A stretch of DNA of 64,000 nt, from IMG/VR virus record IMGVR_UViG_3300026116_000004, positions 5,499-69,498 of that record; one strand, written 5' to 3'. This stretch comes from a virus. Positions 649 through 64,000 of this stretch are shown in pieces; position 1 is the stretch's first letter; each line of letters starts with the position of its first letter. The notes under the pieces were generated by a model, which searched no databases, had not been told where the DNA came from, and was given only the letters and a program-made list of their open reading frames with translations. A program made the translations under genes and the position numbers.

Positions 649-780
649 ACTATAGAGTTCTTTTACTCATAGAGTACTAACTCTAAGAGTATAACTATTA
701 GGTTATTAAGTAATATTACTCATAGAGTTATAACCCCTATAGTAAGATAATCTTTACTACAGAGTTATAACTCATAGAGT
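649..780. repeat. Array of ACTC-N3-GAGT palindromes in an AT-rich intergenic region
   Basis: ACTCATAGAGT at 665, 718, 770; ACTCTAAGAGT at 680; variants ACTATAGAGT 649 and ACTACAGAGT 756. Confidence 0.85.
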
Positions 781-799
781 ATAAAACCTATAGATATTA

Positions 800-828
800 A
801 TTATATATGATTTATAACTATTTGTCAA
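800..828 (-). promoter_or_regulatory. Consensus sigma70 promoter
   Basis: TTGACA (828-823), 17-nt spacer, TATAAT (805-800). Confidence 0.9.
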
Positions 829-2685: not shown

Positions 2686-3071
2686 TACTTCGTTTCTTCC
2701 TTGCGCTCTAAAGACTTTTCCCAATCATCGTACGTTTTATATTCAGCTTTCGTATCTTTTTCCGTCCTAATGAGAGCCTTTGACCAGAGTTCAACAATAT
2801 TGTCTGTTTTCGATGAACGAAAGTAATCAACCTGCTTCCAACCATTGGTCCGGAGGATAGACTTCTCCTTTTCGTTGGTAGAAATGACAGTGCATAAAGC
2901 AAAATCATAACCGAACTTGCGAGCTGTGGTCAGTCTCTGTTCGTGTGCTACTTTACCACACCCTTTACCCCTGTTGTCTTTTGGTGTCCACACGTTGTGA
3001 AACACAGCAATCTGGTCACAGCCAGGTAACGAAGTGATCTCTGACACCACTCCTCCAACATTGTATCTCAT
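2685..3071 (-). CDS. GNAT-family acyltransferase
   Basis: RGKGCG acetyl-CoA loop; CTV...N...IL..NGW motif B. Confidence 0.75.
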   Translation of the reverse strand: MRYNVGGVVSEITSLPGCDQIAVFHNVWTPKDNRGKGCGKVAHEQRLTTARKFGYDFALCTVISTNEKEKSILRTNGWKQVDYFRSSKTDNIVELWSKALIRTEKDTKAEYKTYDDWEKSLERKEETK

Positions 3072-3838
3072 TGTGCTAAAGCCCTAGCATAGTTCTGAAC
3101 GGTAGTACCCGTAAGACCAGGTGCAGTATTAACCTCCAACACAAATGCCTTAACTCCCTTGCGCTTATCGTTATAAACGATGTCAACGGCACCGAAGTCA
3201 AGACCAGAATGTCTAATGGCCTCAATGGCGGCAGCTCTGACTTCATCTGGAGGGCGAATGTTTTCCCTCTGATAGATGAAACCATTTGCAAGGTTTCTGA
3301 TCTTCCAGTTGATGTCGTCACCACTGTCAGCCTTCTGCTTGGAGAGCACTTTACGCTGTTGGTCAATGATCTCGTTACCCACTACGTGAATACGATATTC
3401 TTCCGTCTTCTTTACGTATTCAGTATAAAGTGGAGCACGAACAAACCCATCAGGATGATCACGGTCCATAATAACAATACCGTTACCTGAATGACCATTA
3501 AGAACGGTACGAGCAACCACCACTTTGCCTTCTGCGCACCACCGGATGGCTTCTGCTTGGTCAGTCGTCCAGGGAGGAAGAATTTCATTGTTGCGTTCCG
3601 ACACCTTTCTAAAGAAGTCCAACTTGTTGGAAGCAATTCGGACAACTTCAGGCTTATTAATGATATTGCACTTTGCAACTTCAGGAGAAACTTGAGAAGA
3701 ACCCCAATTGATCACCCTCTTACGTTGTGATCCAACGAAACGAGAGTTTTCATTCTTGATTTTCGTGATACCCATTGCATCCTTGAGTGCAATAGCACCC
3801 TCAGAATGGGCATTCCATGAATAGATATAAGTAGGCAT
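3068..3838 (-). CDS. ATP-grasp peptide ligase (RimK-like, phage type)
   Basis: NKL, GHSGNGI, EYRIHV, DFGAVD and LEVNTAPG motifs. Confidence 0.9.
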   Translation of the reverse strand: MPTYIYSWNAHSEGAIALKDAMGITKIKNENSRFVGSQRKRVINWGSSQVSPEVAKCNIINKPEVVRIASNKLDFFRKVSERNNEILPPWTTDQAEAIRWCAEGKVVVARTVLNGHSGNGIVIMDRDHPDGFVRAPLYTEYVKKTEEYRIHVVGNEIIDQQRKVLSKQKADSGDDINWKIRNLANGFIYQRENIRPPDEVRAAAIEAIRHSGLDFGAVDIVYNDKRKGVKAFVLEVNTAPGLTGTTVQNYARALAQ

Positions 3839-5013
3839 TAGTCATTGTTTCTCCAAGGATCATTTACAACTGGCTGGTTTACCACACCACCAAGAATGTC
3901 ACCGCGTGCTTGACGAACAGGTATAGGACGAGCAGCTGCTCTTAAAGCTAAGTCTCTGATACGCTGCTCTTCCGCTTCCCAAGGGCGAATTGCTGCATCA
4001 CCATCGTCGAACTCAGCCTGAGGAATTTCTACATCGCCACCTTGACGAAGCACGGCGAGTTGTTCAATACCGCGCAGCTCTTCGAAAGGACGATTGTATA
4101 ACTGTCGGGCAATTGTGTCCAAGTCGGAAGACTTTACCTTCTTTGGTTTTTGGACAGCATCCAACTTGTCCCAACCCTTTGAGTCAGGAACTGATAACGC
4201 AATGTTAGCCGCATACCAGAAGTTATTCTCGATAAGTTTCGCTTCATCGTCAAACTTTAAGTTCTTTCTATACTTGCCAAAGATGTCCGTGAGTAGCTCT
4301 ACACCCTTGTCTTTGTAATTGTTGATGATATCCCCTGGATACATCTTGTCCTGACGAGAGAACTTGACAATCTCATGGAGAATACCAACCCAATCTTCAA
4401 TTTCCTTGATATCAGTCGTTCCTCTGAACGATCTTACTTCAAGAGAACCAAAGTTAGACAACGAATGAAGGTTCAACGCAGCATACTTAGTCAACTCACG
4501 GTCAAAGAGCATGTGTTGATAGTTCGGTTGTGATTTACCTTTCACTGTCGAAAGGTTCTTCAACATGTTAACAATGTTCTTGTAAGTCTCTTCTGCGTCA
4601 CACATAGGAAGACAAAACATGTTACCATTGCGTCCCTCACCTGAATACTTGATGAGTAGATTTTCAACGAGAGCGTATGTCGTTAAGAAGTTACCAAACG
4701 AAGGGAAACTCTCATTGAGCATGTTCACATGGACATGAACACTCGTTGTAATCGAATTTTTCTTGAAGTTAGCGTGAACTAACTTAGACTTGAACTCCTC
4801 AAGTGCCTGAGGGATCACATCGAAGTCCAGTGGTTGACGGAGTACGTACTCACGACCAAACCCACGGAGAGAACCATCTGCGTGAATATCCCAAAAGGCG
4901 AACTCGGGGATACGATACTCTGCATCGCTCTCCGTTTCGATCTCAAGACCGAACAAACCCTTATGTTTAGTAAAGGTTCGCCCAGTCTTTTCTAAAGCAT
5001 CACAAATCGACAT
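3838..5013 (-). CDS. Putative amidoligase (COOH-NH2 ligase, glutamine-synthetase-like fold)
   Basis: GLEIE, HADGSL, E, SVHVHVN, KYAALN and SLEVR motifs. Confidence 0.85.
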   Translation of the reverse strand: MSICDALEKTGRTFTKHKGLFGLEIETESDAEYRIPEFAFWDIHADGSLRGFGREYVLRQPLDFDVIPQALEEFKSKLVHANFKKNSITTSVHVHVNMLNESFPSFGNFLTTYALVENLLIKYSGEGRNGNMFCLPMCDAEETYKNIVNMLKNLSTVKGKSQPNYQHMLFDRELTKYAALNLHSLSNFGSLEVRSFRGTTDIKEIEDWVGILHEIVKFSRQDKMYPGDIINNYKDKGVELLTDIFGKYRKNLKFDDEAKLIENNFWYAANIALSVPDSKGWDKLDAVQKPKKVKSSDLDTIARQLYNRPFEELRGIEQLAVLRQGGDVEIPQAEFDDGDAAIRPWEAEEQRIRDLALRAAARPIPVRQARGDILGGVVNQPVVNDPWRNND

Positions 5014-5014
5014 T

Positions 5015-5692
5015 TCACTGAATATCCCAGGCTAATTCATGGGAAAGATAACGAGACACAATCCAACCCATGGCGTTGTTAGGAACTCTTACGAGCATTT
5101 CGTCAGGTGCGATCCACCCAACCCAACTGTCCTTGAAATACACATTGATGTTACCCATTGCATTAATGGACAAAGCAATGTTTCTAGAGACAGCCTTTTG
5201 ACAAATGATGTCTGCCTCTTTGAGGTTTACTACAGAAGTCTTGGAGTAAATACCCCTTAACTCCTTGATGGCGGAGTCGAGTGAAGGGTAGATTCCTTCA
5301 ACCATGTCTGCAAACTCTTTGGTGAAGAAGATGTTATCGACGTACTTCGCCCTACCCCCTCCATTACCCGTTGCAGACGAAATCCTGAGCGACCTTCCTT
5401 CGACACCTTGCTTTGTTCTCCTTGCAGGAATACGAGAGACGTAGACGACTTCTTTGCTATCCTTCTGGTTCATATAACCCAGAGGAAGGCTTGAAATGTC
5501 AAACTCTTCATCAGTTGACTTAATACGGAATTTGGCCTCCGCATTGGAACCCGCTCTGCAATCGTACAGATCGAGTTGTCCTTGCCTGTCCCTTACTCGA
5601 ACGTAAACTGGCGCACCCTTGTAACGACAAATAGTGCCATCGAGTTTCTGAGTAAGATCAACATCAGGAATTGTGCAGCGCATTGGCTTCAA
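5015..5692 (-). CDS. Hypothetical protein within the ligase cluster
   Basis: 225-aa ORF tightly packed between the two ligases; contains LPLGYMN...SRIPAR. Confidence 0.7.
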   Translation of the reverse strand: MKPMRCTIPDVDLTQKLDGTICRYKGAPVYVRVRDRQGQLDLYDCRAGSNAEAKFRIKSTDEEFDISSLPLGYMNQKDSKEVVYVSRIPARRTKQGVEGRSLRISSATGNGGGRAKYVDNIFFTKEFADMVEGIYPSLDSAIKELRGIYSKTSVVNLKEADIICQKAVSRNIALSINAMGNINVYFKDSWVGWIAPDEMLVRVPNNAMGWIVSRYLSHELAWDIQ

Positions 5693-6377
5693 TATCCTCC
5701 ATTCTCGAAATGATTGAACGATACATCATTCTACGGTCGTCTTCCTTTTCCACCCAGCGGGAGGAAGGGCTTCTAAGCTCAACTCCGTAGGTCTTAGGGC
5801 GAAACGAACTTTCTCCTCCGTAGTACCTGATGCGCTCGAACTCTTCAGGTGTAACCGGCTTGAAGTACGTCGCATTACGGAAGGACTTAGCGATATGTCT
5901 GCAGTCTTCAAAATGTGAAGGGTCAAAGGGATCGGCTCCTTCAGTCCACCCAAGATGCACGTGTCCCGCTGTCGTTCTGAATGGACGATGTTCGAGGTCT
6001 CCCGGAGGTGCTTTCTGCATTCCGGTTTCAGCAGAGTAGTCAGGATCGCAGCCAAGGATTTTGCTTTCTACTGGTAAGATGCTGAAGTACAGCGGATCGA
6101 ACCTAGCGATAGGAATGAAACGGAGCTTAAGGTCTCGATCAACCTTGTGAACCATTTCAGTCATCTGGTTAAGAACAGTAACAATGTTGTTATTGAACTC
6201 TTCTTCAGAATTAGCCGGCTCAATATTAAACTCAAGGGCCATACCGTCCACTTGGACAGCGCCCTTATCAACCTTGTGGGGTTCTTTCTTCGTCCCAGGG
6301 AACAAACCGTGGGCACTAATGAACTGTGCTCCATCATGAAGAAAAACTTCTGGGTCACAGCCGATAGTAACTTTCAT
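5664..6377 (-). CDS. phiEco32-like COOH-NH2 ligase type 2
   Basis: IGCDPE, DGMALE, GCDPD, RTTAGHVH and FRPKTYGVELR motifs. Confidence 0.9.
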   Translation of the reverse strand: MKVTIGCDPEVFLHDGAQFISAHGLFPGTKKEPHKVDKGAVQVDGMALEFNIEPANSEEEFNNNIVTVLNQMTEMVHKVDRDLKLRFIPIARFDPLYFSILPVESKILGCDPDYSAETGMQKAPPGDLEHRPFRTTAGHVHLGWTEGADPFDPSHFEDCRHIAKSFRNATYFKPVTPEEFERIRYYGGESSFRPKTYGVELRSPSSRWVEKEDDRRMMYRSIISRMEDIEANALHNS

Positions 6378-6378
6378 G

Positions 6379-7431
6379 CTAGTTCAAAGCCTTTCTACTG
6401 GTTAAATCGATCTCTAATTGCTTTTCTTTTTGATACTGTAACTCGTAACACTCTGCACAAGTATACACGTTCACAGGTTCTTCGTGACCCTTGTATTGGT
6501 CGTAAAGGTCCATTTCTTTCCTACAATTCCTGCAAATCTCAGGAAGAATTTCTCTACCTTTTGGAGTATTCTGCGTCAAGCGCAGAGGGGTCTCATTACT
6601 GTTTGACGGATAAGTACCCAAACGAGATTTGTTCCCTATAGGAATAACCTTCGCTCCTGCCGCTGGACCCCATACTGTTCTAGCCTCTAAGTTTGCTTGA
6701 AACCCGTAGAGAGGTTGCTTGTCCCAGTCAGGTTCTCTATTAGTTTCAATATCGTCTGGACCAAAACGATACACATAGTCAGGTTCGAACGCAGTGATCT
6801 CCTTGAGCTTCACACCATGCCGGGAAGCAGCGAACTGGATCATACGAGCTTCGCTAGCCCAGTAAAACACCTTGCGTTCTTTGTTGATTGCGTAAAACAG
6901 TGGTCTAGAAATTTCTCTCGTAAACACAAACTCAAAGTGTTTCTTTTCAAACGCAACTATCGCGTATGCACTCTTAGAAGAGAGACCACGGAGTACATTT
7001 TCAATACCACGCTTGTCCATGTCTTCGAACATCATTTCTGAGTCCGTTTTCGTGGAGTCTTTGTATTGATCATCTTTTAGAGTACCATTGTGCATGCCAA
7101 TGATATTGGTCTTTTCGAAAGGATGTGCGTTCTCTGCGTTCACAGCACCCATCGTTGCTGCTCTCACGTGAAGCGCCATGAACGTATCGTGTGTATCGTT
7201 CAGGATTTTGTTGTCAGCTTCCTTTGATGAAGTCTGATTGAACCAAAGAAAATAACCAACTTCGTGTTCATTCTTGAGGATGCGATACCGGCGCTTCTTT
7301 CCACTATGGTAACCTTGGAGAACGCCAGTGCCGTCAATCCCCCTTAGGCCCAGAACATAAGCGAGATCGCGCATCATACTTATATCTGATACGTTGATCC
7401 CTGGACCCATCATTCCTGCATGACCACACAT
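6379..7431 (-). CDS. Class II (Ntn) glutamine amidotransferase with C-terminal Cys cluster
   Basis: MCG start; RGIDGTG, HVRAAT, NAHPF, HNGTL, TDSE; CxxC...CxxC tail. Confidence 0.9.
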   Translation of the reverse strand: MCGHAGMMGPGINVSDISMMRDLAYVLGLRGIDGTGVLQGYHSGKKRRYRILKNEHEVGYFLWFNQTSSKEADNKILNDTHDTFMALHVRAATMGAVNAENAHPFEKTNIIGMHNGTLKDDQYKDSTKTDSEMMFEDMDKRGIENVLRGLSSKSAYAIVAFEKKHFEFVFTREISRPLFYAINKERKVFYWASEARMIQFAASRHGVKLKEITAFEPDYVYRFGPDDIETNREPDWDKQPLYGFQANLEARTVWGPAAGAKVIPIGNKSRLGTYPSNSNETPLRLTQNTPKGREILPEICRNCRKEMDLYDQYKGHEEPVNVYTCAECYELQYQKEKQLEIDLTSRKALN

Positions 7432-7441
7432 TCTATGCCTT

Positions 7442-8080
7442 TCAGTTGAACATTAGGTAGTCGATTAAGTTGAAGAAATAAGCTTGATTGCCACTGTTTT
7501 TGTTTTCAGACAACCAGTACTCAGGGTGAGGTTGATAACACAAAGACATCGTTTCCTTGTACCATACAACCTCCGTGTCGTACTTTGGTCTCTTTCTGCT
7601 CGCCTTTTTGCTCTCAAACTGTGTTGCACAATGGGCGACTGCGATAACAGTTCCTTCTTTCGAAGGGATCATCATCTGATGGTGTGTACTTGTGACAAAA
7701 ACAGTCTTCTTTGACAAAAGAAGGTCAAGCATCTGGTGACCACCAGTTAACCCATGGTTGTTAACGTGTTGCCACATAGAACCACCAGACATCACGTTGA
7801 GAAACTGTCCACCTCGACAAATACCCACCTTTGGGAGGGATCGGTATTTCTCAAAGATTTCCATTTCTTTGATGTCACGTTTCCAATTGTTGTGGGTTTT
7901 CTCATGGGGTTCCTCCTGGTAGAGTTCAGGACTTACATCCTCTCCACCAGTAAAACAAATAAGGTCAGCTTTTGTATCCTTATCGTTCTCATCAACCAAC
8001 TCCCACCCACGATTGAGAAACATCTTCTGAGTGGCTTGGGTTGGTAGGATGATTTTTACTTTTCTCTTAGTAGTTGACAT
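7442..8080 (-). CDS. Class I glutamine amidotransferase / peptidase C26 (PuuD-like gamma-glutamyl hydrolase)
   Basis: TGGEDV, GICRGGQ, STHHQ and QPHPE (Cys-His-Glu triad). Confidence 0.9.
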   Translation of the reverse strand: MSTTKRKVKIILPTQATQKMFLNRGWELVDENDKDTKADLICFTGGEDVSPELYQEEPHEKTHNNWKRDIKEMEIFEKYRSLPKVGICRGGQFLNVMSGGSMWQHVNNHGLTGGHQMLDLLLSKKTVFVTSTHHQMMIPSKEGTVIAVAHCATQFESKKASRKRPKYDTEVVWYKETMSLCYQPHPEYWLSENKNSGNQAYFFNLIDYLMFN

Positions 8081-8922
8081 ATTTCTTCCGCGCCGTTCAT
8101 TAAATCTTCAAGGGTTAACTCGTAGTATTGAGACCAATTTGAGTGTTTGAGCCTGCCCATCTTGCCAATAGCTTCCGCAATCTTATCGTATTGAGGAGGC
8201 TCCCAATAGATTTTATCCTCAAGGCAAAACACAGACATAGAGAAACTTGCGTCCATACGCATTTTGCCTTCATTGAAACCTTCAACATCGAACTTCTGTT
8301 GAGAAACAATCCAATGGTTGAAGTTACCGACATTACCTTTTCGGATATTTCCTGCCACATCCATACTAAATCTGGATACAATAAAAAGGGCATCACCAGG
8401 AGTAAGACCCTTTTCCATCAGTACCTTCCATAGTCTCATATGGGCAGGGAACTCACTGCAAGCCCTCATCGCAATCATCAAACACTTTGTGATGCTCTTG
8501 TTGTACTTTTCGATGAAGTCACTCGTTATCAAGAAGCCTGTTTGTTCTCCCTTGGCATTCTTAAAGAATTCAAATCCTTCTTCTGGTAAAATACTCTTGA
8601 AGGGACTCAAATCCTTATCCATCAAAAAGTCACACCAAGGCTGTGCGAATTCCTTATTTGACTCTTTGATTGGGCAGCAAGAACCGATAGCCATTGGCTT
8701 TCTATAGTTATCAGTCCAATGAGTAAAAACTGGAGCACTACATGGAGCAGCAGTTGACGATCCAATCCTTCCAGTATAACTACCGACAGATATCTGCATA
8801 CTTGTAGGATACTCAAAAAAGTATGTAGTTCTATCCTGATCAGCTGGCATTAAAACAATTTGGGAATAAAAATTTCTAGCTCTTTGGTAAGCTAGTTCTA
8901 ATTCTTCAGTCGTTGGTCTCAT
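8056..8922 (-). CDS. Hypothetical protein
   Basis: 288-aa ORF overlapping both neighbours in the operon. Confidence 0.7.
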   Translation of the reverse strand: MRPTTEELELAYQRARNFYSQIVLMPADQDRTTYFFEYPTSMQISVGSYTGRIGSSTAAPCSAPVFTHWTDNYRKPMAIGSCCPIKESNKEFAQPWCDFLMDKDLSPFKSILPEEGFEFFKNAKGEQTGFLITSDFIEKYNKSITKCLMIAMRACSEFPAHMRLWKVLMEKGLTPGDALFIVSRFSMDVAGNIRKGNVGNFNHWIVSQQKFDVEGFNEGKMRMDASFSMSVFCLEDKIYWEPPQYDKIAEAIGKMGRLKHSNWSQYYELTLEDLMNGAEEICQLLREK

Positions 8923-9538
8923 CGTGAGTGTCTAAAGCTCTTTTAACAATACGATAATTAATTGCTTTTGCTATCTCAGCATCGTTATGCCAGTAAGGAT
9001 CGTGATTAGGAAGATCAAAATTGAACTCTTCTTTAACCCACTCACGAAGCTTGGTACGTCCCTTTCGACGACCGTCCCCAAGGGTAAGAAAGCTCCTTAC
9101 AGACTCAACTGTAACCCTCTTAAGGCCAGCTTCTTCGAGTACTTTAAGTCGCTTAAGTCTCTCCTCTTCCTTGGCCTTCGCAGCAGCCTTACGAGCTTCC
9201 ATTTGCTTACGGACTTGTTCTGCCCTCTTTTCTCTATAAGGAGCAAGACCAACGTTCAGATCATGGTCAGAAGCCGCATAACAACTAAGTGGTTCATCAC
9301 CATACTTTTCGTCATGTGTAGTAGGTGTTTTCTTGAAGCCAATAGCCTCAAGATATTCTGCTTCCTTATCTTGTTCATCGTTTAAAAGCACTACATTTAT
9401 ACGTGAATAACCGTGGTCAATAATTGCGTAAGCAAAGTCTTCAACGCTTTTGTAGCGAGGATAGCCGTGTGCATAGCCAACGTTATAAAAATTAGCAGAT
9501 GCACAACAACCAGCAATAGAACCTCTAGATAATGCCAT
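8906..9538 (-). CDS. Hypothetical protein, degenerate GNAT-like N-terminal domain
   Basis: AGCC...FYNV; VVLLNDEQ...YLEAIGFKK; AAGGA RBS. Confidence 0.6.
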   Translation of the reverse strand: MALSRGSIAGCCASANFYNVGYAHGYPRYKSVEDFAYAIIDHGYSRINVVLLNDEQDKEAEYLEAIGFKKTPTTHDEKYGDEPLSCYAASDHDLNVGLAPYREKRAEQVRKQMEARKAAAKAKEEERLKRLKVLEEAGLKRVTVESVRSFLTLGDGRRKGRTKLREWVKEEFNFDLPNHDPYWHNDAEIAKAINYRIVKRALDTHDETND

Positions 9539-9558
9539 TTTTCCTTTAAATCCTTTAG

Positions 9559-10158
9559 TTACCTTCTAGCGAAGGGATTAACAATTTCAGTACCAAATAT
9601 TTCATTAGCAATAGGTTGTAAAATAGGTCTAATGTCTCTGTGAAAATCTCCTATCCACGTAATACACTGATGGTCAGAACGACCTCTTTCTTCGGGAGTA
9701 CCAAACTTTGATGTTTCTGCCGCCTTCTTGAAACCAGAATTCTCAAACATTTCGACTGCGTGAGTTTCATTATGGTTTGTAACAGCAACAATTGAACCAA
9801 CAGCAACCCACTGTGCACTTACAGGTGACTTGAGACAATGCACTAAGAGTTGCTGATTAAGTCTCAGGTTCGAGGTAATGTACTGCGAGCTTTCTTTTTG
9901 TATTTGGGTACGTAGTTTATGTCTGTTTTCACCCCACATTTCTGTAGAAGACAGATGAGAATTAAGGCTATCCGTGATATGAGCCTGGTAGACTTCCTCG
10001 TCTGAATACTTGTTTTTCATTTTTAAACGAAGGGGCTCTCCAGGTACACTTTCTCTGATAACATTACCGTACTGATCGTAGGCATAAACTATGGGAGTAT
10101 TATACACTCCGAGCAACAATCTGCCACCACAGAACAGAGGAAAAAGACACATGCGCAT
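9559..10158 (-). CDS. Hypothetical protein, degenerate GNAT-like
   Basis: FPLFCGG; IVAVTNHNE...MFENSGFKK. Confidence 0.6.
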   Translation of the reverse strand: MRMCLFPLFCGGRLLLGVYNTPIVYAYDQYGNVIRESVPGEPLRLKMKNKYSDEEVYQAHITDSLNSHLSSTEMWGENRHKLRTQIQKESSQYITSNLRLNQQLLVHCLKSPVSAQWVAVGSIVAVTNHNETHAVEMFENSGFKKAAETSKFGTPEERGRSDHQCITWIGDFHRDIRPILQPIANEIFGTEIVNPFARR

Positions 10159-10160
10159 GA

Positions 10161-10376
10161 TTAACAGGCCCTTATTTTGTCTTCGTCGAACGAAGGGATT
10201 TCGAAAATAGTATATTCTTCTTGCTTCATTTCTGGCATCTTACGGTGCTTACACACAGCCGCATGATACGAATTGAATAAACAAGAAACAGCTCGTCGGC
10301 CACTGTAGATTTGTTTCAGAGCCTGAACTGCGTGCCAATCGCTACGAGCGATTATCCATTTTTCTGCCGTTGCCAT
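10161..10376 (-). CDS. Hypothetical protein
   Basis: ORF tiling in the operon. Confidence 0.6.
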   Translation of the reverse strand: MATAEKWIIARSDWHAVQALKQIYSGRRAVSCLFNSYHAAVCKHRKMPEMKQEEYTIFEIPSFDEDKIRAC

Positions 10377-10377
10377 G

Positions 10378-10719
10378 TTAGTCTTTCACAGTGTATTCAA
10401 TTTCAATCCAATCAATGATTTCGTAGCAATGTAGCATGTCAAAGTGCTCTTTGTTCACGTAAGACTTGCCACTTATGAAAGGCATTGTGTTTTTAGCAGT
10501 TTTATACTTTAAAATAGGTATCCATGCTTTGAGAACAATAGGTTCTTTGTATTCAATCCAATATGTCTTTGCGTCATCTAAACGCAATCTATCTGAGTGA
10601 AAGTGTCCATCAGAGCCTACCCACCAGATAAGAACTGTTTGTTGGTGAATTTTAGCTACTGTCCAATGACTAGCAGAGTTTAGTGATGTGTACTCTTTAC
10701 CTTCAAGGATTTCAGTCAT
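10378..10719 (-). CDS. Hypothetical protein
   Basis: ATGA overlap with the upstream gene. Confidence 0.65.
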   Translation of the reverse strand: MTEILEGKEYTSLNSASHWTVAKIHQQTVLIWWVGSDGHFHSDRLRLDDAKTYWIEYKEPIVLKAWIPILKYKTAKNTMPFISGKSYVNKEHFDMLHCYEIIDWIEIEYTVKD

Positions 10720-11114
10720 CTTACCACTCTACCCTGCCACAAATGGCATCCATTTTCATTTACACCACATTCGGACATTTCTGTGTAGGGGAAGTGTTTA
10801 CCTCCCACATACATAGAAACTTCTAGTGGTTCTTCTTGGTTTCCAAGGACATAGGCTTTTACCACCTTTCGATGGTACATATAGCCTTCCCCTTCGAGAC
10901 GATCCAAACGAGCGAGAGTAGCATCATTGTCGCCAATGTCCCACACCTCTCCTATCGCTTTACTGTTTTCGTCTTCCTTGGCTACAGGAAAGCCATACTG
11001 GTAGAGTTTAAACCCCTCGACAACAGCGTCACCTATCTTTCTATGAGCACCTTCTGATAGGATGTAGTTATTGCCGTACCCACTTTTCAGTGTTCCATAA
11101 ACAAAAACTTTCAC
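10716..11114 (-). CDS. Gamma-glutamylcyclotransferase (AIG2/GGACT family)
   Basis: VFVYGTLK, GEVW, LDRLEG, YHR. Confidence 0.92.
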   Translation of the reverse strand: MKVFVYGTLKSGYGNNYILSEGAHRKIGDAVVEGFKLYQYGFPVAKEDENSKAIGEVWDIGDNDATLARLDRLEGEGYMYHRKVVKAYVLGNQEEPLEVSMYVGGKHFPYTEMSECGVNENGCHLWQGRVVR

Positions 11115-11436: not shown

Positions 11437-11521
11437 TGGTGCCCACGGTCGGACTCGAACCGACACGCCTTACGACAAGGGATTTTAAGTCCCTCGCGCC
11501 TACCAATTACGCCACGTGGGC
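11437..11521 (-). tRNA. tRNA-Leu (anticodon UAA)
   Basis: GCCCACG acceptor stem, AGGGA-CTTAAAA-TCCCT anticodon arm, long variable arm, GGTTCGAGTCC T arm, encoded CCA. Confidence 0.97.
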
Positions 11522-13568: not shown

Positions 13569-13645
13569 TGGTGACCACAGCACGCTTCGAACGTGCAACC
13601 TACGGCTTAGAAGGCCGTTGCTCTTTCCAGTTGAGCTATGTGGCC
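13569..13645 (-). tRNA. tRNA-Arg (anticodon UCU)
   Basis: GGCCACA/TGTGGTC acceptor stem, ACGGC-CTTCTAA-GCCGT anticodon arm, GTTCGAA T loop, encoded CCA. Confidence 0.97.
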
Positions 13646-15687: not shown

Positions 15688-15826
15688 CATCACCAAGCCT
15701 CGTTTCAACCCCTGTTATGTAGTTCTTTTTTGCGTTAGAGTGATTTCAAGAGGTTACAACATTATTGTAACATTGCCACTCGCATAGCAAACTCCCTCTG
15801 TTAGAGTTCACATCCTACATTTAGAC

Positions 15827-15982
15827 ACAAAAATAGCCCCTAGTGAACACCCTGGGCGACGGAGGGACTGGAAACGTGCCAAGGTATCACTAGGGGCGTA
15901 TTCGTGGTAAACTAGGAGGGGGATAGACAGTGCGCGAGTTAGGGAACACGCACATGATTACCTAGTCAATCGACCACGAACC
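15827..15982 (-). ncRNA. Candidate sRNA: two long hairpins with C-rich (anti-SD) loops and a U-tail
   Basis: Stems 15901-15908/15973-15980, 15911-15916/15961-15966, 15930-15934/15949-15953 and 15836-15846/15887-15897. Confidence 0.6.
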
Positions 15983-16576
15983 TGTTTATTCCGAATTTCG
16001 TTGAGCCTTTTAAAGACATGCTCAGGTCTGTTTTAGAGAATTTCTTGCTGGCCCTACCGGCTAACTGCTACAGGTCAACTGTTTGTGCGGACGGGCAAAG
16101 GCTTCTCTGTTTACCTAGGTTCTATTCGGACACGCTCCGGGTGAGTTGTTGCCCTACCCAAGGGCTCAATTTATCTCTATCAGGTTTTTTCAAGTGGACA
16201 GTTTAACCACATTTCCAGGTGGTATCTCTATCTGTGCCGATGCTTTTTTGGTCTTAATTTTATGTTCTAGCGCCTAGACCTAGCGCTCAACTACACAGCA
16301 TTCTAGTTGTATAATCCACGGCGATCGTTCTCCTACAAAATACCCATGTCCATGACCACTTCTATAAACAAACATGGGCGAACCAAATATTTACCAAATA
16401 GGTGTTGCCTAGTGAAACATGCGGCAGGAGAATGGAAGGTCAACCCGCCACTTGCCCAAATCACACTTAGCATTGTGTTCCTTTTTTCATTCCATTGGAA
16501 TTACTTGGTTCACTCTGCCACCTTCCTTGGCCGTATTAGGTACCATTCTGAAATGTGACTAGTTAACACTAGACAA

Positions 16577-16612
16577 CAAAAAACCCCACCGGACGAACCT
16601 AGTGGGGTTTTC
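16577..16612 (-). terminator. Intrinsic terminator (possibly bidirectional)
   Basis: AAAACCCCAC/GTGGGGTTTT inverted repeat flanked by A/T runs. Confidence 0.8.
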
Positions 16613-16646
16613 AACTGCCTAGAGGCACGTCTCTTGGACGAATTGG

Positions 16647-17225
16647 CTAGTCTTTGTTAGACTTAAATGGAAGAAATACTGTACCCTTTTTTTCATTCGG
16701 GTTTTTAACAGTTATTTTTTCTTTAGGTGGTGCTCCCGTTTGAGTAAAAGGCATGTACTTCTTTACCGTTCCATCTTTTGCAAACGACCTATACTTAAAG
16801 TCGTCTGGTTCAGGATGAAAACCATCATTACCAGTTGCGATTGTAACGGGTTTAGGTTTGATCTTTGCTCGTTTATCTTCAACGTTCTTGATGTGCATTG
16901 CCATTTCTTCCTTCAAAGTTTGTTTACGCTTTACAACTGCATCGTCCAAACCTTGGAGTTTATTCATCCGTTTTTGCATGATGAAATAAAGCTTATTTTT
17001 GTTCAATATAGAACGCTCTATTTCCGCACGCTGTACAGGTTCCCTAATCCCACGATGGATCAAGTGTTTTATTTGTGCTTCCACTTGTTTCATCTTTCGG
17101 GCAAGCTTGTGAATTTGTTCCTTTATAGGGACTTCCTTCACGTTTAATTCCAGGTGCCCTCTCATTTGGCCACTAAATGACCTTTGATGGGTAACGTCTT
17201 TCCAGTCTCTTGAAATCTTTGTCAT
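16647..17225 (-). CDS. Hypothetical basic coiled-coil protein
   Basis: Likely start MTKIS after GGA; lies between two terminators. Confidence 0.7.
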   Translation of the reverse strand: MTKISRDWKDVTHQRSFSGQMRGHLELNVKEVPIKEQIHKLARKMKQVEAQIKHLIHRGIREPVQRAEIERSILNKNKLYFIMQKRMNKLQGLDDAVVKRKQTLKEEMAMHIKNVEDKRAKIKPKPVTIATGNDGFHPEPDDFKYRSFAKDGTVKKYMPFTQTGAPPKEKITVKNPNEKKGTVFLPFKSNKD

Positions 17226-17265
17226 TGGTTTTTCCAGTCCCAAGTTTTCAAAGGTATTTAAACGC

Positions 17266-17311
17266 AAAAAACCCCACGCCAAGACAATGAAGCCTTGAAA
17301 CGTGGGGTTTC
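17266..17311 (-). terminator. Intrinsic terminator
   Basis: AAACCCCACG/CGTGGGGTTT stem with a U-run on the minus strand, just after the stop of 17329..18135. Confidence 0.8.
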
Positions 17312-17328
17312 TTTAGTTCACGTTGCCG

Positions 17329-18135
17329 TTAAGCCGAAACGCGATTTTCGCTTTCCGTTGCAGGCTTATTGCCGCCGGTCTGACCGACAGCCGTATCGGT
17401 TTCTTCCGAGATTTCTTCCTTCGGAATAGACTTGCCAGCGGCTTCACTTGCCGTTGCCAAATCATCGATTTCCTTCCGGCTCTTTGCGTCAAGCGGGCTG
17501 GAATTGACCATACGCAGAAGTTCGACGCGACCCATGCCGGAATGAGGCAAGTCTTTCGCAATGCGCTTGAAGGCCGAGATAAGGCCAGAAAGTGCCTTTG
17601 CCGGCGTGAGAACGTTGTCGGTTGCCGCCTGTTGAGGCGTAACCCAAGCAATCTCACGAAACTCGCCTTCGGTCTTGGAACGAGCATTCTTAAGCCCGTC
17701 CTTGATCGCTTGCGCAATTTCCGGCTTGTCCGACTTGTTAATGGTGAAAAACTCGCCGGTGTTCTTGCCGTCCTTCATAGGCTTGGCCGTGAACTTGAAG
17801 AAAGGAACCGGGCGGACTTTCCACTTGGTTTCATCTTCGGGATCACGCTGGCCGCCGATGCCATACGCATCCATCACGTTGTTGACGTAATAGGCGCGAA
17901 AGGCCAAACTGTCCTTCGGATGCATTTCCGAAAACAGCATGTTCATGTAAACGCAGCGTCCGTGCTGTATGGCGAACCAAACAGCCGCAGCGGCGCCATC
18001 GGCGATTGTATTGAAGCTTTCGTGTGACGCTTTGACGGCAAGGCCGACAAGACGCTTCACGCGTTGCTCTTCGGTTTCCTGCTTACCCTTGTCGACATTG
18101 GCCGCACGGGTTGTAGCAATTGAGACCTTAGCCAT
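17329..18135 (-). CDS. Hypothetical early protein, probably highly expressed
   Basis: GGAAGGA RBS; GC3-rich codons; own terminator. Confidence 0.85.
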   Translation of the reverse strand: MAKVSIATTRAANVDKGKQETEEQRVKRLVGLAVKASHESFNTIADGAAAAVWFAIQHGRCVYMNMLFSEMHPKDSLAFRAYYVNNVMDAYGIGGQRDPEDETKWKVRPVPFFKFTAKPMKDGKNTGEFFTINKSDKPEIAQAIKDGLKNARSKTEGEFREIAWVTPQQAATDNVLTPAKALSGLISAFKRIAKDLPHSGMGRVELLRMVNSSPLDAKSRKEIDDLATASEAAGKSIPKEEISEETDTAVGQTGGNKPATESENRVSA

Positions 18136-18230
18136 AACTGTTATTCCTTCCATTTTGGTTTAGCTTTGTCATGAAACGAAAAAGACGCAAAGAGACAAAG
18201 CATAAGCCTTGCGCCCATCGCGTTCCATAA

Positions 18231-18252
18231 CTTATTCGATTGTCAAACAACA
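18231..18252 (-). promoter_or_regulatory. rrn-type boxA antitermination element (copy 2)
   Basis: TGTTGTTTGACAATCGAATAAG; no -10 element at 17 nt from the embedded TTGACA. Confidence 0.6.
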
Positions 18253-18254
18253 CA

Positions 18255-18570
18255 CATTGGACCGTGTTGCGCATTAAGCAATCGATGCAAACCTTGCTCT
18301 AGGATTTTGGACATACCTAGAGTGTACTCCAAAAACGGTTTCCCGTTTGGAGAATAGGTTTGACGCCACTAGCGCCGGACCCTACCCCGCAAATGCGGTA
18401 CCTTGTCACCTCGAAAGGCGGTTGCGGGAAACCCTATGGCTTGGCACCTACAGGCACGAAGCGCGGCGGATCGGCCGCAGACAAGGCAAAAAGCCCATTC
18501 CGGACATATGCTCACAGATTGTTCCGCCTGGAAAGTCACTTAGTGTTTCACTATGTAACAATCCGTGATC
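18255..18570 (-). ncRNA. Large multi-stem structured RNA / 5' leader
   Basis: About 10 nested stems; G-U pairs and UUCG/GAAA tetraloops on the minus strand. Confidence 0.65.
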
Positions 18571-18594
18571 CTTGTGTGTCTCATATATTGAGTA

Positions 18595-18609
18595 GAACAA
18601 ATAGAGAAC
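18595..18609 (-). promoter_or_regulatory. Alphaproteobacterial LexA (SOS) box
   Basis: GAAC-AAATAGA-GAAC on plus = GTTC-N7-GTTC on minus. Confidence 0.7.
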
Positions 18610-18813
18610 GTATTCCAGGGGAGATTGGAGCTAGGCAATGGGGTTAGATAGGGTCTATTCAGCCCGTAGAGCGCGCTACAGTCGTTTCTCCCATTGATAG
18701 GGTATCACACACTCACTTTTGAGAACGCAACTGTAGGACCCCTACAAAGGCGATTTAAGAGCTATCACTAAACGTCAATGGATAGGAATATTTTCCTAAA
18801 AAGAATAACGCAA

Positions 18814-18849
18814 ATAGCTCCAAGAGCTTTTTAGGTCCCTTGGAGCTAT
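18814..18849 (-). terminator. Hairpin, probable terminator
   Basis: ATAGCTCCAAG/CTTGGAGCTAT 11-bp inverted repeat just after the stop of 18859..19074. Confidence 0.55.
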
Positions 18850-18858
18850 CTTTAAGTG

Positions 18859-19074
18859 TTATCTGTTATAAGCCTTGATTATTCGCTGTATAACCGTGTC
18901 ATCGTCACTAGGACTAGTACACATTATTGACTGTGATTTAGGATTATCACGCTTATCAGCGATTTGAGCCGCTCTAACCGTGTCTTTATCCCATGACCCA
19001 CAATCAAAACACCAAATCCTACCAGTTCGCACAAGCAAGAAATGGTATTGATTGAAAGCTAGATTGTTTCTCAT
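18859..19074 (-). CDS. Hypothetical early protein
   Basis: ATGA overlap. Confidence 0.6.
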   Translation of the reverse strand: MRNNLAFNQYHFLLVRTGRIWCFDCGSWDKDTVRAAQIADKRDNPKSQSIMCTSPSDDDTVIQRIIKAYNR

Positions 19075-19301
19075 TTGCCTGCTTGCTTTCTCGTTTGTTG
19101 ATACAACGCGTCGTTTGCTAGTCTACAAAAGTAACTTTGGTTAAGTTGGAAGTATTCAAAGTTAATGATGTTCCAAACTGCCCTTTCTTCTAGAATGCCA
19201 CCATAACGCGAGGCATTACGGAAGATTTCCGTAGCAACATCACTAGTTTGATTTCCAGCTAACCATGAATTACGAATGTATTTCACCATATCGTTACGCA
19301 T
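19071..19301 (-). CDS. Hypothetical early protein
   Basis: GGAAGGA RBS before MRNDM. Confidence 0.65.
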   Translation of the reverse strand: MRNDMVKYIRNSWLAGNQTSDVATEIFRNASRYGGILEERAVWNIINFEYFQLNQSYFCRLANDALYQQTRKQAGK

Positions 19302-19436
19302 AGTCTTTCCTTCCATTTTGACGTTTCACAAGAAAACACTCTGTTTTTGAGAGTGAATGCCTGTCATTCACAAGAGTTTAACAAAGCCGCCTGCTATTCT
19401 GGTTTCTAGATTAAATCATTAGTCGCTTATCAGCAA

Positions 19437-19676
19437 CTAAATCGGTTGTGTTAGTTCAATGACAAATAGACTGTCATCCATTACATACTCAATGCACCTA
19501 GTTTGATTGTCAGTTAAAGCATTGATAAGGTTTTCTACATTGGCAAATACTGGCATTTGCTTATGTGGATTGTCATGCTGTGACATATAGAAAAGTGATT
19601 GCTCTATATCACCTTCCTTTTTAGGTAGCTTACGTATCTTGATACTCTTGAAGATAGCTTTATTGACGAAAACCAT
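19437..19676 (-). CDS. Hypothetical early protein
   Basis: TAATG coupling. Confidence 0.6.
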   Translation of the reverse strand: MVFVNKAIFKSIKIRKLPKKEGDIEQSLFYMSQHDNPHKQMPVFANVENLINALTDNQTRCIEYVMDDSLFVIELTQPI

Positions 19677-19912
19677 TATCTTACAAATGCCTCCTTTACA
19701 GTCTCAAACCATGCTCTAGCACGTTCTGGACTATCAAAGTTTAGATCATGCAAGATTACTTCCTTGGTTTTCAACTTGATTATGTATCTAACCATGTTGA
19801 TTGCATGTCCTTTTACATAACCTTTAGTTTCTTCAGGCAGTGTTATTAGTTCAATCTGCAAATTCACATTAGGAATATTGCAGACATCACCATATTTGTT
19901 CTTACGTGGCAT
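19676..19912 (-). CDS. Hypothetical early protein
   Basis: GAGGG RBS. Confidence 0.65.
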   Translation of the reverse strand: MPRKNKYGDVCNIPNVNLQIELITLPEETKGYVKGHAINMVRYIIKLKTKEVILHDLNFDSPERARAWFETVKEAFVR

Positions 19913-20405
19913 TAGTTTTCCCTCTTGCGTTGTAGCAAGCGACTTAACTAAACTCTTGTGTGTTCCTACTAGCTAATAAAACCGCTCGCATGAGCGTTGG
20001 ATTTCAGATTAAACTGATTATCAGCCAGTAGATTAGGGCTGATATGATTATCCCTAAGATAATCCCTTGGATGTTATTCAGTTGCATTAGATTTCACCTC
20101 TCAAAGCCGCTAATGCAGCTTCCTTTGCCGCCTTAGACGCTATTTCTTTCACGATTGCTTTGATTGCCGTTTGGATTTGCTTATCCATTGTTCAATCCTC
20201 CTTTGGAGCAAAGAACATGAATGCAAGAAACACAACTGCTACCATTGGAACTGGAAAGCAGAAGATTAGCAGTTCAAGGTATTGGTACATTGCTAGTCCC
20301 TCTTGTTTGAATGCCTCTAGAGCGATCTAGAGAGCCCATACAAGCGGTTTAACTAGCCAGTAGGAAATCCCAAGAGTTAATAAAACCGCTTGAATGAGCG
20401 ATTGA

Positions 20406-20576
20406 TTATTTATTGTCGTAACGAGTTGCTGCGATACGTTCTAGCTCTAGTGTCTCTTGATAAGACAAACGTTCTAAAGCGTCTAAGGCTTGCTTGTGTT
20501 CCTTAAGGTCTGCCCATCCTTTCTTGTACAAACGGCGAGCGATTTCTTCGATAGAAAGCTTGATTGGCTTAGACAT
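20406..20576 (-). CDS. Small hypothetical protein (56 aa, below track cutoff)
   Basis: MSKPIKLSIEEIARRLYKK...; manual translation. Confidence 0.5.
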   Translation of the reverse strand: MSKPIKLSIEEIARRLYKKGWADLKEHKQALDALERLSYQETLELERIAATRYDNK

Positions 20577-20597
20577 GGTTAGCTACTTTTGTGTTGA

Positions 20598-20780
20598 TTA
20601 GAAGTTATAAGGCTTGAAACCGCTATCTTTGCAGATTTGGTTTGCCTCTTTCTTTCCAGATACAGCAATCTTTTGAGCGTTGTTGAATTCATCACCATTG
20701 CAAGGCTTAGGGCAGATAGTAAGCACATAGCCTTGTTTGGTCTTATTCAGATACGCGACTGCGATATGAGTTGATTGCAT
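20598..20780 (-). CDS. Hypothetical protein, first gene of the leftward early operon
   Basis: AGGAG RBS. Confidence 0.65.
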   Translation of the reverse strand: MQSTHIAVAYLNKTKQGYVLTICPKPCNGDEFNNAQKIAVSGKKEANQICKDSGFKPYNF

Positions 20781-20894
20781 TTGGATAGCTCCTGATTAGG
20801 TCACAGAAGCTCACACAAGCGGTTTGACTAACCCTTGGGATAGATCATGCCAAACACAACGAAAGACGCTCTAGGGCGCTTCGCTGTGAGTGGT

Positions 20895-20915
20895 CTTATT
20901 CAGTTGTCAAAGAGC
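20895..20915 (-). promoter_or_regulatory. rrn-type boxA antitermination element (copy 1)
   Basis: GCTCTTTGACAACTGAATAAG; compare E. coli boxA TGCTCTTTAACA. Confidence 0.75.
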
Positions 20916-20947
20916 GGGCTGATGTCCCTGGAAAGCACAGGTGAGCC

Positions 20948-20974
20948 ATAGTAGAACAAAAGTAGACCATACAA
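20948..20974 (-). promoter_or_regulatory. Early promoter with overlapping LexA-like box
   Basis: TTGTAT-GGTC-TACTTTT-GTTC-TACTAT: GGTC-N7-GTTC immediately before a -10-like TACTAT. Confidence 0.55.
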
Positions 20975-21060
20975 ATGTGGCAACAATAAGGCATGTCAAG
21001 CCGCTCGTTTCACTCGCTCGTCACGCTCTTCGAGCGCTCCAGCCCCTAAATCGTACAACC

Positions 21061-21088
21061 AGTATGATAACATGATTAAACCAGTCAA
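21061..21088 (-). promoter_or_regulatory. Possible leftward sigma70 promoter
   Basis: TTGACT-16 nt-CATACT. Confidence 0.45.
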
Positions 21089-21199
21089 GATAAGAAATAA
21101 CCATAAGAGTACAAGCCGTGAGACGGCGCGCATAACCTACTAAATAACCAATATATACACGTAAGAACTGATTAATTTCGTACAAAATGCATTATTCTC

Positions 21200-21228
21200 T
21201 TGACAAACAATTACAATTGTAGTATAAT
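21200..21228 (+). promoter_or_regulatory. Consensus sigma70 promoter
   Basis: TTGACA (21200-21205), 17-nt spacer, TATAAT (21223-21228). Confidence 0.9.
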
Positions 21229-21861
21229 TAATGTATAGACTAAAGAAAACTATGAGCTATTCGAAGATCATGTTTCATACTATGGATTTGTTCTTCAGAT
21301 ATTGTTCTTATCAAGTGTACACATCGATAAGTACAAACTAGTAAGAACAATCAAGACTAAAGAGAACTAAACAACCTTAAGCTAGAACCTTATGGGAATA
21401 CTAAAGAGTAACTTATGTAGTTATAACTCTAGGAGTAATACAGTAATAACATGTAGCATTGTCTAGTGGATGAACTGACCATAAGTAGACAAACTAAAGT
21501 AGTCCCTAAGTGTAGGCGCTTAGAGCTCCCATTCTCCTCTAGTTTATTCTAGCTCATTTCTCTTCAAGAGAACACCTGGCCGCGCTCCTAATAACTCCTG
21601 GAGTATATCAAGTAGACTATATTTATACGTGTAGTTTATACTCTAATAGAGTAAGTAACGATAGAATTATATATTGGTTGTGATAAGTATAACGCCCAGT
21701 TATATTCACCTGTGGAGAAAGTATATTACCCCTGGTGAGCCACAGGTGCCAGGCCGGGGGGTACCCATATCGTATACGCCATTGGCATAATTTGGGTAAA
21801 AACGAGGTGTAAACTTTCACCTTAAGAAACAATATAGTTTTGAATAGAGGTTTAACAAATC

Positions 21862-63110: not shown

Positions 63111-64000
63111 TTAGTGGGTTGTACACCAATTGTAACCAGTACGGAATGTACCAGCTTGTGGGCATTTAACACCTAGGTCTTTACCAGCTTGCACAATTGC
63201 GTCTGCTTGGATTTGACCTACGTATTCAGGCAAACCTTCTTTGTCAATAACTTCAGTCTGCCATTCATCATGAATAAAATTCACTTGTCTGAAATTGATC
63301 TTCTCTTCTTTGAGTTTCTTTCTCCATAACCAATTTGCGTACTTCATAATGCAGACTTCTCCATTTTGGAGATAACCTGCAAGCATCAGATGATTGCTAT
63401 CGCATTTAACGATACGACCATCAAATCCAATGAATTGCCCCATCTTAACATCTTCGGGGATAACTTCTTCTTTAACCCTTTTAAGTCCGGGATAACCATT
63501 GAGGAAACTCTCTCTGGCTACTACAGCTTCACCTACGGAACATTCAAGAACTGCTGCAGTTTTGGTAGCAGATGCTCCAAGCACCCATGAATAGATAAAG
63601 GTTTTTGCTGCATTGCGATCCTTACACACAATCCCAAGTTTGTTTTTGTTGAGAGTGTGAACATCCGTACCATCTTTCGATGAGCCCGATACAAGAGCCT
63701 TGGTGAAAGACTCATCTTCCATGTAATGCGCAAGTACCCTGAGCTGGATACCTTCTGCGTCGCAGCCAACCAGTTTATATCCTGGACGCGCCATCCATAG
63801 AGATCGATAGTCAGCACCCCATCCACCGTCCTCGCCAAATAGAGGATGTCCCTCTTTATCAGTTTGGATGCGGATGATGTTTCCTGTGTTAGGGGCTTTG
63901 TGTGAACTACGATGTGTCCATGTACCGATTGCGTTGATTTGTCCATGGATAGACTTAGTCCTTTCGTTATAAGCGAATATCCACTCGTCTAATGTGGTTA
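63111..64000 (-). CDS. DNA polymerase family A (C-terminal part; frame open to the window edge)
   Basis: HG...GT.T.R.SH..PN; DAEGIQLR (motif A); KTFIY (motif B); HDE (motif C). Confidence 0.95.
   Translation of the reverse strand, partial: TTLDEWIFAYNERTKSIHGQINAIGTWTHRSSHKAPNTGNIIRIQTDKEGHPLFGEDGGWGADYRSLWMARPGYKLVGCDAEGIQLRVLAHYMEDESFTKALVSGSSKDGTDVHTLNKNKLGIVCKDRNAAKTFIYSWVLGASATKTAAVLECSVGEAVVARESFLNGYPGLKRVKEEVIPEDVKMGQFIGFDGRIVKCDSNHLMLAGYLQNGEVCIMKYANWLWRKKLKEEKINFRQVNFIHDEWQTEVIDKEGLPEYVGQIQADAIVQAGKDLGVKCPQAGTFRTGYNWCTTH

Follow-up and report, generated by a model that had tools for sequence, protein, structure and literature searches.

Candidate LexA operators upstream of two leftward gene blocks in a phiM6-type phage without recognised lysogeny genes

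We analysed a 64-kb stretch of DNA (the window) from a 69,498-bp virus record, IMGVR_UViG_3300026116_000004, which carries two direct repeats resembling the LexA (SOS) box of Alphaproteobacteria. Both sites are noncoding and lie upstream of two leftward, terminator-bounded gene blocks. The minus strand is the sense strand of all real genes around both sites, and the repeats are listed here as read on that strand.

18595..18609, minus strand: site 1, a LexA-type box, GTTCTCTATTTGTTC, an exact GTTC-N7-GTTC followed by TACT.
20954..20968, minus strand: site 2, a LexA-type box, GGTCTACTTTTGTTC, with one mismatch in the core, followed by TACT.
20943..20957, minus strand: a third repeat, GTTCTACTATGGCTC, overlapping site 2 and 11 nucleotides (nt) downstream of it; 14.1 bits with the matrix described below, the sixth score in the genome.

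The top strand at 18591-18609 reads AGTAGAACAAATAGAGAAC, in which 18595-18609 form an exact GAAC-N7-GAAC core, and at 20950-20968 it reads AGTAGAACAAAAGTAGACC, whose second half-site is GACC, one mismatch from the core. The corresponding minus-strand sequences are GTTCTCTATTTGTTCTACT for site 1 and GGTCTACTTTTGTTCTACT for site 2; site 2 is therefore GGTC-N7-GTTC, with a G at core position 2. Both motifs had been picked out in an earlier note made from the sequence alone, and we found sequences and positions exactly as given there, located on the minus strand. An exact 11-mer is common to the two sites and is found nowhere else in the window, and its 9-nt core occurs only at these two sites in the whole genome. 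Site 2 and the overlapping repeat together form a triple direct repeat (GGTC/GTTC/GCTC), an arrangement that also occurs in real alphaproteobacterial lexA promoters.

Real operators were collected from a class-wide sample of alphaproteobacterial genomes centred on a Parvibaculum sp. genome (n = 81). A lexA gene above the family cut-off was located in 61 of these genomes and a recA gene in 77 (one genome, G033, is counted only in these two tallies and contributes no site). The DNA upstream of the 30 best loci of each gene was then used. Of the 30 lexA loci, 27 had an exact GTTC-N7-GTTC upstream (30 sites in all), as had 14 of the 30 recA loci (14 sites), and the extended consensus of these boxes is tGTTCTA(G/C)TTT(G/T)GTTCt. 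The word shared by the two phage sites, TTTGTTCTA, is contained in this consensus and thus corresponds to the conserved right half of real operators. Alphaproteobacterial lexA promoters are laid out as CTTGAC, 9 nt, GAACcaaactaGAAC, approximately 10 nt and GTTTtgcttttGTTCtatat. Site 2 is identical at 13 of 15 positions to real lexA-promoter boxes (GTTCTACTTTGGTTC), and real lexA promoters often carry boxes with one mismatch next to exact ones.

A 21-column log-odds matrix was derived from the 44 real lexA and recA sites and run over both strands of the whole genome, approximately 139,000 positions. Site 1 (18.7 bits) and site 2 (18.2 bits) ranked first and second, and the next-best score, 17.8 bits, falls within a tail gene. 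When the true sites were scored leave-one-out, the lower quartile was 15.7 bits and the median 20.0 bits, and the phage sites fall in the range of these scores. The first two ranks were kept in four of five matrix variants (lexA-only, recA-only, 27-column and high-pseudocount). With the recA-only matrix the phage sites scored 18.0 and 17.5 bits and the next best 14.9, and with the 15-column variant they ranked second and fifth. Columns outside the GTTC cores contributed 2.76 at site 1 (P 0.022) and 9.58 at site 2 (P 0.0001); as the sites had originally been chosen by their GTTC cores only, this non-core score is independent evidence. The phage has no LexA box of the gamma/beta type, and none of the Gram-positive type in its noncoding DNA. 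The GTTC-N7-GTTC direct repeat is described as the alphaproteobacterial SOS box in two reports (PMC3323433, PMC12700426). The proposed match to this box holds as judged by sequence, including at spacer and flank positions that the earlier note had left unused. It is therefore well supported, at the level of sequence, that the sites have the features of an alphaproteobacterial SOS box, namely the direct repeat and an extended consensus with a score in the operator range.

Sites of at least 18.2 bits were expected 0.065 times per genome under a zero-order model and 0.075 times under a first-order Markov model. Among 200 Markov simulations, 15 contained at least one such site and none contained two. 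The expectation for noncoding DNA was 0.008 sites, for an 8.3-kb set that is slightly too large because it took in part of the polymerase gene. The empirical rate was one such site in 726 kb from 80 relatives, and none in the related Sinorhizobium phage phiM6. The bare core behaves differently. Exact GAAC-N7-GAAC occurs seven times in the window against 2.25 expected, a count reached in 1 of 100 shuffles, and only one of the seven copies is noncoding. GTTC pairs are also frequent at every spacing from 3 to 12 in the genome. The bare core is for these two reasons weak evidence, and the raw count of GTTC-N7-GTTC was rejected as evidence because GTTC pairs are frequent at all spacings.

The phage is of the phiM6/HMO-2011 podophage type, with a genome of 69.5 kb. 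Its large terminase (TerL) shows 51-59% identity with its counterparts in roseophages CRP-738 and CRP-3, Sinorhizobium phage phiM6 and SAR116 phage HMO-2011, and the same range covers Rhizobium phages RHph_N3_19, N3_13 and I3_11. Among its relatives, the known hosts are Rhizobium, Sinorhizobium, Roseobacter, SAR116 and Pelagibacter. Near-identical DNA is present in rhizosphere and soil metagenome runs, all nine listed runs being DNA, none RNA, and one of them perhaps the source of the record, and three further runs contain 22-72% of the sampled words. The hosts of the relatives and the occurrence in rhizosphere and soil point to an alphaproteobacterial host. Gene order is as in phiM6, with structural genes rightward and replication genes leftward, and the G+C content is approximately 43%, against 42.9% for phiM6 (PMC6256558).

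A 99-nt exact repeat is present at the ends of the record. When it is collapsed, the DNA polymerase gene (window 63111-64000 plus genome 1-1100) is intact across the joined ends, which indicates that the record is a circular assembly of a permuted genome. A true direct terminal repeat was therefore rejected, the 99-nt repeat being an assembly overlap. PhageTerm likewise predicts a circularly permuted genome for phiM6 (PMC6256558). In agreement with the earlier note, which had seen no integrase or repressor, a scan of 80 open reading frames (ORFs) against PHROGs gave no integrase, excisionase, CI-type repressor or partition family, many of the small ORFs having no assigned family. A single 'RDF' match belongs to a phosphoesterase-type family and has no integrase partner. 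No phage-encoded LexA was found.

The putative transcription units below the two sites, which run leftward from a divergent region at about 21000, and the elements that bound them are as follows.

18859..20780, minus strand: leftward unit A, below site 2; about ten small ORFs (27-81 amino acids) with repeated hairpin elements between them.
18816..18828, minus strand: terminator-like hairpin closing unit A.
18280..18590, minus strand: G+C-rich structured leader or small RNA of about 300 nt below site 1; none of 100 shuffles folds as stably (z-score -2.97).
16647..18153, minus strand: leftward unit B, below site 1; a 274-amino-acid protein (17329-18153) and a 211-amino-acid protein (16647-17282), neither with an assigned function.
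16577..16608, minus strand: strong hairpin and T-run closing unit B, read from the sequence by eye.

As LexA-like sites precede two early gene blocks, part of the early programme may sense DNA damage in the host. We favour the interpretation, at a probability of roughly 0.55, that both sites are working LexA operators which keep the two leftward units low until LexA is cleaved. Dimers of the host's alphaproteobacterial LexA would occupy the GTTC-N7-GTTC direct repeats, which would be placed where each of the two transcription units starts or just downstream of that point. In undamaged cells, unit A (20780-18859, the small early ORFs) and unit B (18590-16647, the structured leader and the genes for the 274- and 211-amino-acid proteins) would be held down. 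RecA-stimulated self-cleavage of LexA would release both units, either after DNA damage or triggered by the infection itself, and the remaining genome would be transcribed from box-free consensus promoters. The phage might thereby gain accessory functions that serve it in SOS-induced hosts, a means of timing if infection itself triggers SOS, or a way to restrain its lytic programme. The resemblance to real operators, its rarity, and the noncoding position and common orientation of the sites are observed; for the rest of this scheme we infer the host class, LexA binding, promoter positions, repression and induction.

Promoter-like and leader elements near the two sites are listed next.

20994..21000, minus strand: CTTGACA, -35-like, 26 nt upstream of site 2; putative promoter element.
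21061..21088, minus strand: weak sigma-70-like TTGACT-16-CATACT, further upstream of site 2, with 9 of 12 consensus positions.
20904..20916, minus strand: boxA-like word CGCTCTTTGACAA in the leader of unit A; single occurrence in the genome.
20927..20935, minus strand: CTTTCCAGG, copy 18 nt downstream of site 2.
18527..18535, minus strand: CTTTCCAGG, copy 59 nt downstream of site 1, in a predicted hairpin loop.

Three perfect TTGACA-N17-TATAAT promoters were found in the whole genome, at window 21200-21228 (plus strand), window 800-828 (minus strand) and genome 1147-1175 (minus strand, outside the window). The promoter at 21200 faces the packaging and structural genes, as does its counterpart in phiM6 at position 322, and that at genome 1175 precedes the DNA polymerase gene. 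None of the three, which are the strongest predicted promoters, has a LexA-like site, and the proposal that both early promoters carry LexA boxes was not supported. The CTTGACA heptamer upstream of site 2 is also the -35 element of two of the three perfect promoters, and its copy at 20994..21000 is followed by no good -10. Matches of the quality of that at 21061..21088 are no commoner than in shuffled sequence. The boxes had also been described as abutting a -10-like TACT; TACT does follow each box, but a convincing -10 is absent at both.

The same note had placed a boxA-containing leader after each box. The word CGCTCTTTGACAA, which we take to resemble the boxA of E. coli rrn operons, follows site 2 but not site 1, and it is unique in the genome. 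Three alphaproteobacterial rrn leaders shared no word from which a boxA could be derived. A Nus-dependent antitermination leader with boxA in each unit was thus not found. A duplicated cassette of box, CTTTCCAGG and boxA had further been proposed. On alignment, the two regions are alike only at the box and the 9-mer. As CTTTCCAGG stands at different spacings from the two boxes, 59 and 18 nt, and boxA is present once, there is no fixed cassette. Two copies of CTTTCCAGG are not rare, at least two being present in 15 of 100 shuffles.

Several observations weigh against working LexA operators. At neither site is there a convincing -10, and a consensus scan puts no strong promoter on either box. 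Given their common 11-mer, the sites would count as a single event had a duplication produced them, with P approximately 0.01-0.07 instead of <0.001, although the unlike flanks of the two sites speak against a recent duplication. The matrix has a preference for T-rich spacers, a bias that fits the A+T-rich noncoding DNA of the phage, and the null model based on noncoding composition allows for it. Conservation in related phages, which the earlier note had named as a check, was not observed in phiM6, RHph_N3_19 or 80 marine relatives. The best score anywhere in phiM6 is 13.9 bits, and its 2.5-kb noncoding region has one look-alike with one mismatch, ATTCCCTATTTGTTCT, in the opposite orientation. 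RHph_N3_19 scores at most 6.5 bits in the 20.7 of 68.7 kb that were read, which include the regulatory region. The TerL loci of the 80 marine relatives contain 14 exact boxes, 13 of them within ORFs of at least 93 amino acids.

Natural variants (X2 to X5) were recovered from metagenome runs as partial data, with many of their differences not itemised. One of these also counts against the operators: the match of the divergent variant X4 ends at 20972, and in place of the 616 nt with site 2 and the first two ORFs it has 149 nt of different sequence, so that site 2 may be dispensable in X4. The 31-nt CTTGACA block at 20972-21002 is kept exactly in this variant. In X2, 29 listed differences fall in 17839-18142, within the gene for the 274-amino-acid protein, and only 18446 is listed as differing across 18143-19326. 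As 30 of the 31 differences in this piece are listed, site 1 is very probably unchanged in X2. Site 2 is unchanged in X5, but X5 is nearly the same strain. The variants are mosaic over window 17800-21400, with approximately 10% divergence in the 5′ part of the 274-amino-acid protein gene beside nearly unchanged noncoding DNA, and at 20390-20598 and 20355-20972 small ORFs have been lost or exchanged in their entirety.

An explanation that we consider unlikely is that the repeats are sites for a phage-encoded protein, either an early regulator or an origin- or iteron-binding protein, and merely resemble a LexA box. The boxes are absent from relatives infecting Rhizobium and Sinorhizobium, as would suit a protein of the phage itself. 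The word TTGTTCT has 23 copies in the genome, of which six are noncoding, and five of these six lie within 18500-21350. Three of these lie at 21288-21350, where three TTGTTCTT words, a direct pair with a period of 14 nt and an inverted copy, have spacings unfit for LexA, and the genome has other repeated operator-like words such as ACTC-N3-GAGT arrays. Such a protein would leave unexplained both the agreement of spacer and flanks with the bacterial LexA consensus and the top ranking of the sites under a matrix made from bacterial lexA and recA promoters. Moreover, no DNA-binding domain was recognised among the ORFs near the boxes.

LexA might instead bind without gating early genes. The sites would then be decoys that titrate LexA during replication, so that the host SOS response is on, or relics of a captured host promoter, with little effect; we give this little credence. 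It would fit the lack of a clear promoter at the boxes. The region below site 1 has a G+C content of 0.50, against a phage average of approximately 0.43, and no relatives, as for acquired DNA, and the early region is mosaic among the natural variants. Two sites per genome would nevertheless make a small sponge, and with both facing the same way, each heading a unit bounded by a terminator, they look more like operators than relics. Chance resemblance of two T-rich direct repeats in A+T-rich noncoding DNA is equally improbable: by our own estimate approximately 0.2-0.3 exact 11-mers would be shared by noncoding stretches of about 700 and 1000 nt, GTTC pairs are common in the genome, and the hypothesis was framed after the sites were seen, but two sites were observed against the 0.008 expected in noncoding DNA, the non-core positions score independently, and 726 kb of relatives contain a single comparable site.

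A stronger version of the LexA-operator interpretation takes host LexA as the only brake on the phage, which would idle, its first leftward early genes shut, in a carrier or pseudolysogenic state in healthy rhizosphere alphaproteobacteria until SOS releases the lytic programme. This idea, put forward in the earlier note, is speculation from the boxes themselves; nothing favours stable carriage, and we regard the idea as distinctly unlikely. If true, it would make the phage the equivalent of GIL01 among tailed phages of Gram-negative hosts, or an example of 'lytic deferment' that works through LexA instead of CtrA. The Bacillus thuringiensis tectivirus GIL01 is reported to use host LexA together with phage gp7 instead of a CI-type repressor (PMC4551915, PMC6182141, PMC11511902). 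The two phages are alike in having no integrase and no CI-like repressor, with host LexA boxes at the GIL01 early promoter. GIL01 differs in that its temperate life as a linear-plasmid prophage is proven, its host is Gram-positive, its boxes are of the GAAC-N4-GTTC type and its co-factors are defined, whereas the phage described here has no recognised function in lysogeny, plasmid maintenance or co-repression and its strongest predicted promoters are box-free.

Other uses of host regulators by phages offer partial parallels. Among virulent phages, CtrA sites occur in those of Alphaproteobacteria ('lytic deferment') and Spo0A sites in phi29 (PMC9437464). There too a phage of lytic type senses the physiology of its host by way of promoter sites for one of the host's transcription factors, but the regulator is a different one and the signal is the cell cycle or sporulation and would here be DNA damage. 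The window has no CtrA-type TTAA-N7-TTAA site. LexA controls tum of coliphage 186, the antirepressors of Gifsy and Fels phages, and rstA of CTXphi (PMC9437464, PMC3121763). These share with the proposed scheme LexA on a phage promoter and phage expression triggered by SOS; they are temperate or integrating and have repressors of their own, whereas no such partner was found here and the genes are of unassigned function. The co-option of LexA by temperate phages, CTXphi and GIL01, and the use of CtrA and Spo0A by virulent phages, are established. A literature search on LexA boxes in virulent or lytic phages, which left many subscription-journal papers outside its coverage, gave no alphaproteobacterial-type LexA operators heading early units in a phage without lysogeny genes.

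Compared with the lexA and recA SOS boxes of bacteria, the phage sites share the core, the 11-bp period, the T before each GTTC, the TA after the first GTTC and the T-rich spacer. Site 2 resembles, by its sequence as well as its orientation, the operator that lies second and downstream in lexA promoters (GTTTtgcttttGTTCtatat). Unlike bacterial lexA promoters, the phage has no first operator overlapping a -10, and its sites do not precede a repair gene. If the sites work, the early programme of an abundant soil and rhizosphere phage type would be tied to DNA damage in the host, a set of uncharacterised early genes would be marked as having SOS-linked functions, and the boxes would hint, from sequence alone, at the class of host that an uncultured phage infects.

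The region as a whole had no match among phage records by megablast and blastn, and exact strings of the sites and their flanks had none in metagenome_contigs or viral_contigs. The ORFs of unit A gave no Pfam domain over threshold and one weak PHROG match, to a family without assigned function. In unit B, the 274-amino-acid protein has one 97%-identical cluster in a large collection. An exhaustive search gave 37 matches that include a 97%-identical copy, with 17 at E 1e-10 or better; all but that copy are distant, and none is annotated. Among T7-like phages, some of them phages of Caulobacter, Sphingomonas and Rhizobium, it has only weak matches, to proteins that are uncharacterised. No Pfam family was found in any of 33 members of the family, and no PHROG family was assigned. 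The protein had no match in viral_contigs, phage records or metagenome_contigs, and it has no detectable similarity to the proteins at the corresponding position in phiM6 and RHph_N3_19, a pair with 41% identity between them. The structural model is confident (mean predicted local distance difference test score 84.3) and had no match in the PDB at E 0.001 or better.

ORFs over 18280..18590 have no PHROG family. A second long noncoding stretch with G+C-rich islands lies at 15709-16646 (minus strand). No Rfam family was found in the noncoding stretches, including 18280-18600 and 15709-16646, and these two may be phage noncoding RNAs or structured leaders. A repeat of approximately 33 nt with AAACCGCTTG is present in both orientations between the small early ORFs, at 19964-20003, 20334-20407, 20809-20841 and 19369-19396. 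It forms a long hairpin at 20334-20399, the repeated hairpin element is also present in the leader of unit A, and it may be a processing or termination element. The 13-mer CGCTTGTGTGAGC is shared with phiM6, in its noncoding region.

Elsewhere in the window, a leftward cluster of amidoligase (ATP-grasp), glutamine-amidotransferase and gamma-glutamyl cyclotransferase (GGCT) genes at 3068-11114 (minus strand) is arranged as in phiM6. Two tRNA genes are present, Leu-TAA at 11437-11521 and Arg-TCT at 13569-13645; phiM6 was reported without tRNA genes (PMC6256558). The TTGTTCTT words at 21288-21350 sit in the leader of the rightward perfect promoter. The palindrome ACTC-N3-GAGT has eight copies in the genome, six of them in the leaders downstream of two perfect promoters (window 665-780 and 21426-21604), and these arrays look like an operator array for a phage regulator. 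In phiM6 and RHph_N3_19 a different repeated palindrome, TACTTGAAGTA, occupies the same place.

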